64,000 nucleotides of DNA from a virus (IMGVR_UViG_3300032225_000840:434-64433), one strand, 5' to 3'. Positions 37,983 through 43,650 are shown, numbered from the stretch's first letter. The notes: generated by a model from the letters alone, not told the origin. Numbers and translations: made by a program.

Positions 37983-39083
37983 TTAACTCATGTTAGTAAA
38001 TAGGTAGTTGTTCTTAGTAGCCCAATCAATAAAGCCACGACTTGTGCCTACTGTTGATGCCTTACTTGATACACGCATGACGCTTGTAGCAAACAACGCT
38101 TGTGCTTCCTTGCCTAAGCGATTCATATACTTAATCCACGCATTGACTGATTCTTTATCAACACGTTGAACCGCCGAGTAAACCAACATACATACTGCAC
38201 TTGGACTTTCGGGAACACGAGCCTTCTCAGGGTTTTTAATAATTGTTTCCCAATCCTCTAAGTCATTGGCTAAACGCACCATAGCCATCATGTCATACGT
38301 AGCCCGTCTACCGATTGTGCCGATCAAGGCATGGCTAAGCACATCATCACCTAACGCCTTACATTGGTTAATCAGATCACTTGCCTTCTCCATAGTGCGA
38401 GGTGTTACGACTGCGGGGCGTGGACTACGGGGGTCATTGATATACTCGTTGTCCTTCGGGTCTTTCAAATCCTCGAACGACTGGAACATCTGAGGAAATT
38501 GTTTTGCCGTTAAGATAACTTCGGGTGCTATGTTATAGGGTAAAGCAAACTCCTCAATCCAAGTGTCTGCATTGGGCTTACCTACCTTAACTGTCGTTAT
38601 ACGATTACGTGCATGGGGTGGAACAGAATCCCCGATACCTTCTACTGACAAGTTTGTAGTAGCAAACACAATACTCTTTCTACCATCATTCCCTACGGGT
38701 AGGGAATAGACACCTAACTGCCGTTCAAGCATTAAACGTAAACAGGCGTTCATAACTGCCTTGGGTGCTTTGCCTATCTCGTCTAGCATGATGACAACGG
38801 GCTTGTCCAAATGAAACCCAAACTCCTCATTAGGAATGAAAGAGCAAACTTCTACCCCGTCAATCGTGCGGATTTTAGGAATCATGAAGTCGCCTACATC
38901 TTTTGTGGTCATGTCCACGTAGCAGAAATGATAGTTTTCTTTCCCCAATTTTTCTTGCATGAATTTGAGCATGGATGACTTGCCAATACCCATCTCGCCT
39001 TGTGCTAAGACTGTTACCTTATCACCTACTGCCATGATCAGGTCAGCCGTTTGCCGTAATGTTAATGATTTATATAATTCCAT
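37983..39083 (-). CDS. MoxR-like AAA+ ATPase
   Basis: GEMGIGKS, IMLDEIGK, FATTN (sensor 1), RNR (Arg finger), TPRT. Confidence 0.88.
   Translation of the reverse strand: MELYKSLTLRQTADLIMAVGDKVTVLAQGEMGIGKSSMLKFMQEKLGKENYHFCYVDMTTKDVGDFMIPKIRTIDGVEVCSFIPNEEFGFHLDKPVVIMLDEIGKAPKAVMNACLRLMLERQLGVYSLPVGNDGRKSIVFATTNLSVEGIGDSVPPHARNRITTVKVGKPNADTWIEEFALPYNIAPEVILTAKQFPQMFQSFEDLKDPKDNEYINDPRSPRPAVVTPRTMEKASDLINQCKALGDDVLSHALIGTIGRRATYDMMAMVRLANDLEDWETIIKNPEKARVPESPSAVCMLVYSAVQRVDKESVNAWIKYMNRLGKEAQALFATSVMRVSSKASTVGTSRGFIDWATKNNYLFTNMS
38688..38707. repeat. Palindromic element copy 1 (inside the AAA gene)
   Basis: ATTCCCTAC-GG-GTAGGGAAT. Confidence 0.9.
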
Positions 39084-40024: not shown

Positions 40025-40047
40025 AATCCCTACGGGTAGGGAATAGC
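40025..40047. repeat. Palindromic element copy 2
   Basis: AATCCCTACGGGTAGGGAATAGC. Confidence 0.9.
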
Positions 40048-40298: not shown

Positions 40299-40456
40299 GC
40301 TACTCCCTCCTCGTTTGCTAATACACCTTCGATAAACCCTGTGACAAAAGGCTCAAGTCCATCATCACATGGGTCGTTGTCCATCTCGTTGATATAAAAA
40401 TTCCTAGCGTAAGCATCTAATCGGTTGATGCGTTCTACATTTTCTTTGGTTCTCAT
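40295..40456 (-). CDS. Small acidic protein (53 aa)
   Basis: Not in the ORF track. MRTKENVERINRLDAYARNF...; ATGA-type overlaps at both ends. Confidence 0.55.
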   Translation of the reverse strand: MRTKENVERINRLDAYARNFYINEMDNDPCDDGLEPFVTGFIEGVLANEEGVA

Positions 40457-40659
40457 TTTACTAACCCTCCTTTGTTATTTACTCCAATTAAATCGGCTTG
40501 ATTGGTAACCAGCATATAGTTCGACTTGTGCATAGGCACTACACAGAATAACTTAGCCCTAGCCATAGCCACTTCATCGCCACAATCTAAGCAGACACGA
40601 TAACCAATATCCCACCTTGCTTTAGGGACATTCTCGTTACACTTTTTACACTTCATCAT
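40453..40659 (-). CDS. C4 zinc-finger protein, TraR/DksA-like spacing
   Basis: CKKCNENVPKARWDIGYRVCLDCG. Confidence 0.6.
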   Translation of the reverse strand: MMKCKKCNENVPKARWDIGYRVCLDCGDEVAMARAKLFCVVPMHKSNYMLVTNQADLIGVNNKGGLVK

Positions 40660-41085: not shown

Positions 41086-41214
41086 TTAGTTAAAAAAACT
41101 AGATACTGCTTTACTTACTGCATAGACTAAAAGCATAGCAACAGCACAAGCCATGCCACCTTCTACTACCCACAACAAATCACTCGTAATTAAATCAATA
41201 GAAAAATTAAACAT
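41086..41214 (-). CDS. Small membrane peptide (42 aa)
   Basis: AAGGAGG RBS; MFNFSIDLITSDLLWVVEGGMACAVAMLLVYAVSK. Confidence 0.55.
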   Translation of the reverse strand: MFNFSIDLITSDLLWVVEGGMACAVAMLLVYAVSKAVSSFFN

Positions 41215-41229
41215 ATCTACCTCCTTTTT

Positions 41230-41682
41230 AAATAAAAGACTTAGGCGGATAGACTCACCTCATAAATGAATCTACCCTGTAAATCTTCTCTCGGCTTTGT
41301 TTTGAAATTATTTGACCTCTGCTAATTTATTGCAGTCCTGTATGGGGTTATGGTCGGGTTGTGCTATATGTAAGTGGCATACAGATCAGGGGTTATTTGG
41401 TAGCATGGCTACACGTTCACGCCTAAGCGATCTCAATACATATGCAACAACGTAGGGATACTGCTCGGATTCGATTGGCTTTATCAGCATTTCGCTGTTA
41501 TCGGGGTTTGTGTGAGTCTTGTTCCTCACGCCTACTAAGCCTTCAGGGTTTCCACCCATCTGCACCTAACGCCTACCCTACACCTAGAGCCTTGTGTCTA
41601 GGCATTTAATCAGATTGTATAAAGAGCATCGGCTATTCCCTACGGGTAGGGATTACAGGTTAAAAACCCATTTACCAGCCAT
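41230..41682 (-). ncRNA. Candidate large structured non-coding RNA or leader (~440 nt)
   Basis: Gene-free on the transcribed strand, starts at a perfect promoter, many nested helices found by hand (see findings). Confidence 0.6.
41631..41656. repeat. Palindromic element copy 3
   Basis: GGCTATTCCCTACGGGTAGGGATTAC. Confidence 0.9.
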
Positions 41683-41688
41683 AACTAC

Positions 41689-41717
41689 ATTATACTCTCT
41701 TATACTACCTGTGTCAA
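41689..41717 (-). promoter_or_regulatory. Consensus sigma70 promoter
   Basis: TTGACA-17 bp-TATAAT, exact match. Confidence 0.9.
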
Positions 41718-42304: not shown

Positions 42305-42465
42305 TGTGTAAGACACCTGTATGTTATATGTAAGTCATAGGGTTGCCACTAGCATGACAAGTGTCTGCCTAGTGTATGCTATAAGTATAACGTATGTCTT
42401 ACAAGATTTGTGAAAAACTTTGAATTTTCTTAATTTTTTTGGCTTGGAATGATAGTTTTACTGTT

Positions 42466-42728
42466 AATCACCAAATTCTGTCAATTTCGTTAACTTAGCC
42501 TAAAACCCGCAGAGCCTTATAAACAAAGTAATGCCCACAAATCGGGCTTCTAAGTTAAGTGAAAGGTCTGGCAAAGAAAATCCTGTGTATTACATTTGTC
42601 TTACCTCTCAATATCTCTCTCTACCCCTTTCATTTATATTATAAAAAAAGATATTCGGGCATTGCTTATTCTATAAGGCTCTGCGGGTTTTACCCCCTAG
42701 TTAACGAAGTGTATAAGTTTTGGTGATT
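42466..42728. repeat. Long imperfect inverted repeat with a perfect 21-bp core
   Basis: TAAAACCCGCAGAGCCTTATA (42501-42521) is the exact reverse complement of 42672-42692; the flanks also match. Confidence 0.85.
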
Positions 42729-42847
42729 CGGTCTGCTTATAGAGAGTTTTGGTGATTCGATTATGTTTACAAAATTAACTCGGCATCTGCTTAAACCGAC
42801 TCGGCTACTCGGCATCTGCTTGATGATAGTTATGATAGTTTTTGGAC

Positions 42848-42899
42848 AAAAAAAATACCCGCTAAAAAGCGGGTAATAAAAAACCCCGCCGAAGCGGGG
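42848..42899 (-). terminator. Two tandem intrinsic terminators
   Basis: CCCCGC-TTCG-GCGGGG-T6 followed by TACCCGC-loop-GCGGGTA-T8 on the - strand. Confidence 0.9.
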
Positions 42900-42923
42900 C
42901 TATTCCCTACGGGTAGGGATTAC
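42898..42923. repeat. Palindromic element copy 4
   Basis: Identical 26-mer; overlaps the stop codon of 42920-43498. Confidence 0.9.
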
Positions 42924-43624: not shown

Positions 43625-43650
43625 GGCTATTCCCTACGGGTAGGGATTAC
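43625..43650. repeat. Palindromic element copy 5
   Basis: Identical 26-mer, upstream of the 43560-43588 promoter. Confidence 0.9.

Follow-up and report, generated by a model that had tools for sequence, protein, structure and literature searches.

The window analysed here is a 64,000-nucleotide (nt) stretch of viral DNA (IMGVR_UViG_3300032225_000840:434-64433) and represents a complete IMG/VR phage genome, 64.4 kb in size and bounded by terminal repeats. On its minus strand, a sigma70-type early promoter is followed by ~450 nt without a conserved open reading frame (ORF) up to the ribosome-binding site (RBS) of the next gene, and this interval is a real, conserved, multi-domain structured non-coding RNA at the head of an early operon (Table 1). 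The sequence-only reading that had singled out the interval described an exact TTGACA-17-TATAAT promoter and ~450 nt without a gene before 41214, and both statements hold: the promoter matches the consensus at 12 of 12 positions, is one of only two such matches within 38-46 kb, and is kept in homologs together with the initial transcribed sequence; we infer that transcription starts near 41682. Wherever a locus has enough flanking sequence, small genes and a gene for a DksA/TraR-type zinc finger come next on the strand of the RNA, and then genes for a DUF3150 protein, a MoxR-type AAA ATPase and a DUF2201 vWA/metallopeptidase.

Table 1. Features of the RNA locus; positions are counted from the first letter of the window.
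Feature	Position	Strand	Details
Sigma70-type early promoter	41717-41689	minus	-35 TTGACA 41717-41712; 17-bp spacer; -10 TATAAT 41694-41689
P1 region	41680-41631	minus	GGCU 41680-41677 with AGCC 41634-41631; encloses a small hairpin and the palindrome TCCCTACCCGTAGGGA (41652-41637)
boxA-like element GCUCUUUAUACAA	41627-41615	minus	8-nt core GCUCUUUA intact; one-base insertion relative to the family consensus GYUCUUUAACAA
Single-stranded spacer (..UG.UAAAUG)	41614-41603	minus	between boxA and P2; conserved in alignments
P2 hairpin CCUAGA/UCUAGG	41602-41583	minus	this site holds more than ten distinct complementary stems across the family
P3 domain	41581-41452	minus	GUAGGG 41581-41576 with CCCUAC 41457-41452
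P3-domain junction strands	UAGGCGUUAGG 41575-41565; CCGAGCAGUAU 41468-41458	minus	conserved
P4 domain	41564-41469	minus	variable, module-swapping; inside P3
Domain II, long irregular hairpin P5-P8	41451-41358	minus	P5 GUUGUUGCAUAUGUA/UACAUAUAGCACAAC; P6 AGAUC/GAUCU; P7 UUAGG/CCUGA; P8 GUAGC/GCUAC
Domain II internal-loop strand GUAUGCCACU	41382-41373	minus	conserved
3' core	41355-41314	minus	P9 GACC/GGUC; junction AUAACCCCAUACAGGA with 2-bp CC/GG (P9a); P10 CUGC-loop-GCAG
A-rich tail and intrinsic-terminator-like hairpin	tail 41313-41290; whole 41313-41230	minus	lower stem AGAAGAUUUAC/CUAAGUCUUUU; upper stem GGGUAGAUUCA/UGAGUCUAUCC; U-run ends at 41230
RBS AAGGAGG and first downstream gene (42 aa)	RBS 41226-41220; gene 41214-41086	minus	no promoter of its own

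The DUF3150 neighbour, used as bait, led to 40 related loci, 7 of which carry a full-length nucleotide match to the RNA region, and further homologs were collected with nhmmer, a covariance model and pattern scans over IMG/VR and lake metagenomes, the contigs originating from Trout Bog and similar lakes. A pattern drawn from the most conserved block brought in more loci, and the family hidden Markov model (HMM) confirmed ~54 distinct variants; a second pattern, drawn from the 5' blocks, reached a further and much deeper clade (L238, L242, L244, L245, L247, L250, L251, L252, L254 and L259), with L246 intermediate between the two. Roughly 60 or more distinct phage contigs, falling into two deep clades, share the RNA region, whose length from predicted start to terminator varies from 363 to 649 nt. 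One 201-kb lake-metagenome contig, TBL_comb48_EPIDRAFT_1000003, has four RNA-pattern loci (L129, L143, L181 and L185), of which L129, L143 and L185 have the same sequence; these repeats suggest concatemeric assembly of a ~65-kb phage or overlapping fetched stretches.

Searches of other collections returned no further members. GenBank phages queried by blastn with the whole RNA and two 3' cores yielded no relative, a pattern scan of 185k bacterial species (one genome each) gave 38 matches of which the family HMM confirmed none, and blastn against E. coli genomes at E values up to 10 returned nothing, although a short boxA match would not reach a reportable score in a database of that size. The upstream 104-aa protein drew no relatives when used as bait. 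The R1 covariance model found no match in nine related records (four of them complete genomes), in cyanophage Pag-Yong1 or in phiEco32, and we rejected a single marginal match to this model, which sits inside a tail-fibre-like ORF. The sequence-only reading could not match the RNA by eye to tmRNA, RNase P, group I/II introns or hammerhead cores, and this agrees with Rfam 15, which gives no match at gathering score in the whole window and, at E values up to 10, only chance-level matches with nothing consistent in the region and 11 homolog loci; the families covered include GOLLD, ROOL, OLE, raiA, 6S, RNase P, tmRNA, SRP, riboswitches, group I/II introns and the DUF2815 motif. The DUF2815 motif does appear at 41212-41278 on the minus strand with 18.8 bits against a cut-off of 41.2 (E = 1.4), but this match is confined to the terminator hairpin and the A-rich stretch around the RBS and is probably meaningless. 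ARAGORN finds neither tRNA nor tmRNA.

A protein-coding origin of the conservation was also considered and rejected. Outside the window, its 59-aa ORF can be traced only in the two closest relatives, and there in truncated form; no ORF is common to the family members, and the gap runs in the alignment show no bias towards multiples of three, with 170, 47 and 38 runs having lengths of 1, 2 and 0 modulo 3, respectively.

Single-sequence folding gives a minimum free energy (MFE) of -129.9 kcal/mol and, relative to dinucleotide-shuffled sequences, a z of -2.3 (2 of 100 shuffles do as well), a check named in advance by the sequence-only reading that comes out better than the shuffles but, taken alone, modestly so. 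Comparison of the homologs, in which conserved blocks alternate with variable, length-polymorphic segments and helices are maintained by compensatory change, gives much clearer evidence for the structured multi-domain RNA that had been proposed. The P1 region takes the place, immediately before boxA, that the boxB hairpin has in rrn leaders; its closing helix forms in 22 of 36 distinct members from differing sequences (GUGGUA/UACCAC, GUUGG/CCAAC, GAUGG/CCAUC and others). P3 pairs completely in 43 of 43 sequences in eight compensatory versions, with further versions in the second clade. We tested covariation of the 5' domain on a tool-made alignment of 13 members and 16 pairs (P2, P3, P4 and the conserved-loop hairpin): 11 of the 16 pairs have changed on both sides, including 5 of the 7 pairs of P3, and the score of 0.538 compares with 0.231 ± 0.026 for shuffled alignments (none of 500 as high) and with 0.12 or less for slid partners.

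The 3' core, analysed in 44 sequences, scores 0.240 against 0.095, with covariation in both P9 and P9a; in the second clade P9a is a 4-5 bp CACC/GGUG hairpin and P9 occurs in additional combinations. With slid partners 27-52% of cells pair, as against 99% in the 5' domain and 95.5% in the 3' core. Between these two regions lies domain II, for which each homolog folds alone to the same architecture despite unrelated sequences; the models of P4 to P8 rest on such per-sequence folds. The conserved tract that contains the 3' core is rich in C (37.5%) and poor in G (10.6%), a composition that we would expect of a Rho loading region. The pairs of the terminator hairpin covary as well, and hairpin plus T-run are found in most clade-1 members; in the L045/L071 subgroup and in the deep clade the RNA has 3' hairpins without a U-run and the transcript continues straight into the next gene. 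As an all-against-all column search for pseudoknots was too noisy owing to G-U pairs and phylogeny, we claim no tertiary pairs.

About half of the folding model of the sequence-only reading agrees with these comparisons. GCCTAGA/TCTAGG (P2) and GTAGC/GCTAC (P8) covary in homologs, the 10-bp GGTAGATTCA/TGAGTCTATC helix is the covarying terminator hairpin, and the local GTGAG/CTCAC and GGGT-GGAA-ACCC hairpins of the variable domain are each backed by one compensatory relative, L193. The long-range closures are not upheld, since their partners sit in the covarying P3, P7 and terminator: the CCCTAC strand, which had been given to the 5' palindrome as the closure of domain I, pairs instead with GTAGGG to form P3, and neither the 8-bp CTTAGGCG/CGCCTAAG closure nor CTGTATG/CATACAG is kept as a pairing in homologs, by reading of their sequences.

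The unpaired junction strands UAGGCGUAGG, CCGAGCAGUA, an AUGCCAC-type strand and UAACCYC..ACAGGA are nearly invariant across clades whose DUF3150 proteins are only 28-32% identical. The peripheral modules are swapped, with a hairpin bearing the loop GAAUACAGA found in P2 of some members and in P4 of others. This conserved loop, G-GAAUACAGA-C or GGGAUAACAGACC, lies in the P4 domain in L008, L004, L050 and L046 and in a P2 extension in L077, L053 and L048, a distribution that looks like module shuffling. The shuffled loop resembles what we take to be the 23S rRNA strand GGGAUAACAGGC of the peptidyl-transferase centre, and the likeness may be coincidence.

The 5' palindrome TCCCTAC-CC-GTAGGGA had been proposed as a switch that would either fold on itself or close domain I. 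It is a five-copy, phage-specific repeat of the early region (38690-38705, 40027-40042, 41637-41652, 42904-42919 and 43631-43646), and because homologs lack it or carry palindromes of their own at apical positions, a switch finds no support. Every lineage has a perfect palindrome of its own dispersed over the early region; among those of the relatives (L046/L050/L053/L077 and others) are ATACTGTC-N-GACAGTAT, GTTAAGT-N3-ACTTAAC and ATTCGGGAC-N-GTCCCGA. Inside the RNA, palindromes occupy apical, structure-tolerant sites (P1, the P2 tip, the domain II tip and the terminator loop), often directly beside boxA. They might be hairpins that bind a protein in the manner of boxB, or else operators or small mobile palindromes.

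The most conserved single-stranded block of the family, GYUCUUUAACAA, is an rrn-type boxA (GCUCUUUA(A)CAA) located between the 5' hairpin(s) and P2. Its core in the window is identical to that of the E. coli rrn boxA, the rrnH leader reading ACTGCTCTTTAACAATTT / ACTGCTCTTTAACAATTTATCAGAC; the rrn boxA has been given as UGCUCUUUA and the boxA-spacer as CACugcucuuuaacaauuua (PMC2724277). The boxA consensus GYTCTTTAANA is a gamma-proteobacterial one (PMC5725501). A perfect match to it is seen in 15 of 36 distinct clade-1 members, and most of the others are one base off by reading of their sequences; in the second clade the match is a consequence of how the search pattern was built. The distance from the predicted start to the element is 55-172 nt in every case and, as in rrn leaders, a hairpin comes first. 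In the MFE fold of the window its GCUC pairs with the junction GAGC; the corresponding TGCTC/GAGCA helix of the sequence-only reading, which would sequester boxA, can form in many members but shows no compensatory change. In its consensus match and its promoter-proximal, single-stranded, hairpin-adjacent position, the predicted boxA resembles boxA-type antitermination elements, which recruit NusB/S10 and nucleate the Rho-resistant rrn and lambda-N complexes (PMC12360218); a functional boxA also lies behind the early host promoters of T7 (PMC3709561).

Downstream of boxA the polymerase would meet ~400 nt of untranslated RNA with the C-rich tract, then the terminator-like hairpin and then promoterless genes. 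On the minus strand no other promoter-like site scoring at least 9/12 occurs between the early promoter and 40100. In clade-1 members the U-run leads to an RBS and start codon across a gap of ~10 nt (the window, L012 and L050) to ~45 nt (L004), and because this gap contains no promoter-like sequence (by promoter scan in the window and by eye in the clade-1 homologs) the downstream genes would depend on read-through. The RNA is found solely at the head of the early operon with the zinc-finger, DUF3150, MoxR and vWA genes; the deep clade keeps the identical operon order, so that synteny persists even at the lowest DUF3150 identities given above. The most constant protein-coding neighbour, found 130-2100 nt downstream of the RNA in both clades, is the C4 zinc-finger gene, which in the window encodes 68 aa at 40453-40659 on the minus strand and scores 24.6 bits against the Pfam DksA/TraR cut-off of 24.9. 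Elsewhere the phage encodes a family-A DNA polymerase, a DUF927 primase-helicase, an SNF2 helicase, a PD-(D/E)XK nuclease and a terminase, the last with its closest cultured relatives among pelagiphages and freshwater cyanophages (45-60% identity).

Related records without the RNA were tested for boxA. The five examined (four complete genomes and one ~70% complete fragment) have none at this position, and two of them have a single boxA match elsewhere, unplaced relative to genes; as these RNA-less relatives also lack boxA at this position, boxA and fold travel together. A distant relative, L228 (G005:C1:31300-33800, minus strand 640-790), has the same early promoter and small-gene/zinc-finger operon behind a leader of only ~120 nt with no boxA and no large RNA, so the module is gained or lost as a unit.

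Several known systems share parts of this layout. The E. coli rrn leader (boxB - boxA - boxC; NusA/B/E/G, SuhB and S4) likewise combines a strong host-type promoter, a hairpin and a single-stranded boxA near the 5' end of a long folded untranslated RNA (PMC2724277, PMC12360218), and many family members are identical to its boxA (UGCUCUUUAACAA) over 12-13 nt (GCUCUUUAACAAU). The phage RNA differs in preceding protein-coding genes and in ending, in most members, at an intrinsic terminator. No similarity to rrn beyond boxA and spacer was seen, in a comparison that included no systematic search and in which blastn against E. coli genomes is unable to report a short match; nor did a boxC-like UGUGUGGG turn up in the phage RNA, boxC not having been searched for. 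The nutL/nutR sites of lambda (boxA, boxB and N) and the T7 boxA behind A1-A3 also place boxA soon after early host-polymerase promoters with a hairpin adjacent (PMC2724277, PMC3709561), and some members of the family resemble lambda in having a lineage-specific palindromic hairpin directly beside boxA. The boxA of lambda is of a weaker type, whereas that of the phage family is of the rrn (consensus) type, and neither the nut sites nor T7 have the conserved 360-650 nt fold in which the family boxA is embedded. Among the neighbouring genes tested, Pfam and PHROGs recognised no N-like protein.

The layout is also shared by phiEco32 (EU330206.1), where a promoter, boxA and large non-coding leader also occur in this order and four boxA copies lie at 73609-74273. 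At 72700-74300 on its minus strand (L263) we find four promoter-plus-boxA cassettes (GCTCTTTAAAA / GCTCTTTAATA) ahead of the long non-coding leader, as compared with the one cassette here. The freshwater family differs further in its length of 0.36-0.65 kb, its occurrence in uncultured freshwater phages and its usually having its own terminator. The R1 covariance model and the family HMM detect no sequence or 3'-core similarity in the phiEco32 leader, and therefore we regard the two as analogous, having found no evidence for homology. HK022 put and the Bacillus EAR element are alike in being cis-acting folded RNAs located just after a promoter and followed by terminators and then genes. Both are small (70-120 nt), and neither is known to have a boxA or to require Nus factors; no match to them in sequence or structure was seen, in a comparison that included no search aimed at one. 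GOLLD, ROOL, OLE and raiA share with the phage RNA a size of several hundred nt, many covarying helices, conserved junctions, modular variable domains and a phage-borne setting, but their Rfam models give no match from the phage RNA, and they are not known to carry a boxA or to serve as operon leaders.

That phage early leaders can contain a boxA is already known. The RNA family itself, and in uncultured freshwater phages the combination of boxA with a fold conserved this deeply, appear to be undescribed in Rfam and in the literature searched, a catalogue of 10,006 candidate viral RNAs (PMC10690425) lying outside the comparison. We regard the sequences as a new and well-supported RNA family, and its clear covariation makes it ready for Rfam-style curation and structure work. 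Taken with the phiEco32-type leader, to which it is unrelated, it suggests independent copying of the rRNA-operon layout by lytic phages of separate lineages, with a strong promoter, boxA and a large folded RNA. It makes testable how early transcription in phages is protected from Rho and whether the transcription machinery is a target of large phage RNAs, and since boxA variants differ between subclades it may offer a route to host prediction.

Antitermination dependent on boxA is textbook biology for rRNA operons and lambda. The reading we favour, which we put at about an even chance, is that the RNA is a cis-acting leader of the early operon whose boxA assembles a host Nus complex on the polymerase and so keeps Rho from acting on the untranslated RNA and on the genes that follow without a promoter of their own. 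Three features that go beyond the sequence-only reading, namely the rrn-type boxA, the promoterless downstream genes and the two subgroups without a U-run terminator, mean that a role in controlling transcription elongation in the early operon is no less likely than a free-standing RNA. In such a scheme the consensus sigma70 promoter would fire, and the nascent RNA would form the 5' hairpin and then expose boxA, which would recruit NusB/S10 followed by NusA, NusG and other host components of rRNA antitermination. The modified polymerase would resist Rho along the long untranslated, partly C-rich RNA and pass the terminal hairpin and U-run into the genes for the small proteins, the TraR/DksA-like zinc finger, DUF3150, the MoxR ATPase and the vWA protein; transcripts halting at the terminator would build up as a separate folded RNA species. 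Candidate roles of the P3-P10 core in this process are extending antitermination, binding a further factor, and folding or stabilising the message. TraR/DksA proteins repress rRNA promoters, and as a speculative extension the operon's TraR-like protein could repress those of the host while the phage leader uses the rrn antitermination factors thereby freed.

Several observations weigh against an antitermination leader. A core of 360-650 nt with more than ten helices and invariant junctions far exceeds what boxA needs, and the RNA antitermination signals known so far are short (~50-60 nt for nut and the rrn antiterminator, ~70 nt for put and ~120 nt for EAR). In most clade-1 members the 5' end is base-paired and a canonical intrinsic terminator is retained, both of which are marks of a stable, separately released RNA. 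Relatives with the same promoter-operon layout have no boxA/core/terminator module, and therefore the operon can be expressed without it. Antitermination of the rrn type, independent of N, is reported to act on Rho-dependent rather than intrinsic terminators (PMC2724277), and therefore read-through of the terminator is not explained by boxA alone. Elsewhere, boxA and Nus factors even promote Rho termination, as at suhB (PMC5725501, PMC12360218).

Because the core exceeds the needs of boxA and rrn-type antitermination has not been reported to beat intrinsic terminators, the main rival is a free-standing, trans-acting early RNA comparable to GOLLD, ROOL, OLE or 6S, which would be released at the terminator or by processing and would bind or sequester a host or phage factor, possibly the Nus/rrn machinery itself. 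Here boxA would only shield the transcript from Rho, chaperone its folding and avoid polarity on the genes behind, much as cells use boxA for long untranslated RNAs such as rRNA (PMC2724277, PMC12360218). We hold this reading to be possible but on balance unlikely. The size of the RNA, its modular peripheral domains and its junction and loop sequences, invariant across clades with ~30% identical DUF3150, speak for it, as do the consensus promoter together with the terminal features just mentioned and the coming and going of boxA, core and terminator as one module. Yet the RNA never occurs away from the head of one operon, expression of the genes behind it depends on its promoter, the U-run terminator is missing from two subgroups, and no partner protein was found; the specific roles of protein sponge or anti-defence scaffold offered by the sequence-only reading are not supported.

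In a further idea, the core is a new RNA device working together with boxA. It might be an RNA-only substitute for lambda N that remains on the Nus-modified polymerase and extends antitermination to intrinsic terminators, or a released decoy that captures the host antitermination factors NusB/S10 and their partners while the TraR-like protein shuts off host rRNA promoters. We consider this doubtful, with a small though real chance of being correct; if either version were true, the fastest transcription machinery of the cell would come under phage control.

A sensor-type attenuator, in which the core would sense a ligand, a host factor or an operon protein and thereby set passage through the terminator or expose a Rho loading site, is improbable. 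The order of promoter, structured leader, terminator and RBS is that of an attenuator, and the C-rich, G-poor tract is partly buried in P5 and could act as a conditional Rho loading site; however, reading of the alignment reveals no alternative pairing, of antiterminator type, that covaries with the highly variable stems of the terminator, Rfam matches no known aptamer family, and some members have no terminator. The RNA is also larger than any known riboswitch aptamer. Quite improbable, too, is a passive untranslated front end in which boxA matters and the rest is a structured spacer serving as message stabiliser or palindrome landing pad. Such a spacer would tolerate phage-specific palindromes and swappable modules at apical positions, as is seen, and relatives do without the module, but it would not hold the junction strands (UAGGCGUAGG, CCGAGCAGUA, UAACCYC..ACAGGA and CUGC/GCAG) invariant across two deep clades, nor maintain more than ten helices by compensatory change. 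The weakest candidate is a replication-related transcript, a primer or origin-activating RNA for the origin-like inverted and direct repeats at 42320-42920: structured primer RNAs exist (ColE1 RNA II) and the repeat region lies ~600 nt upstream, but transcription runs away from it and conservation tracks the RNA helices, boxA and synteny with the downstream operon rather than DNA repeats, which makes this very improbable indeed.

Just upstream of the RNA locus there is a second non-coding stretch of ~600 nt (42316-42920) with an origin-like look. It contains nested inverted repeats, 42466-42543 with 42650-42728, and two direct-repeat pairs spaced 29 bp apart (42716/42745 and 42778/42807).

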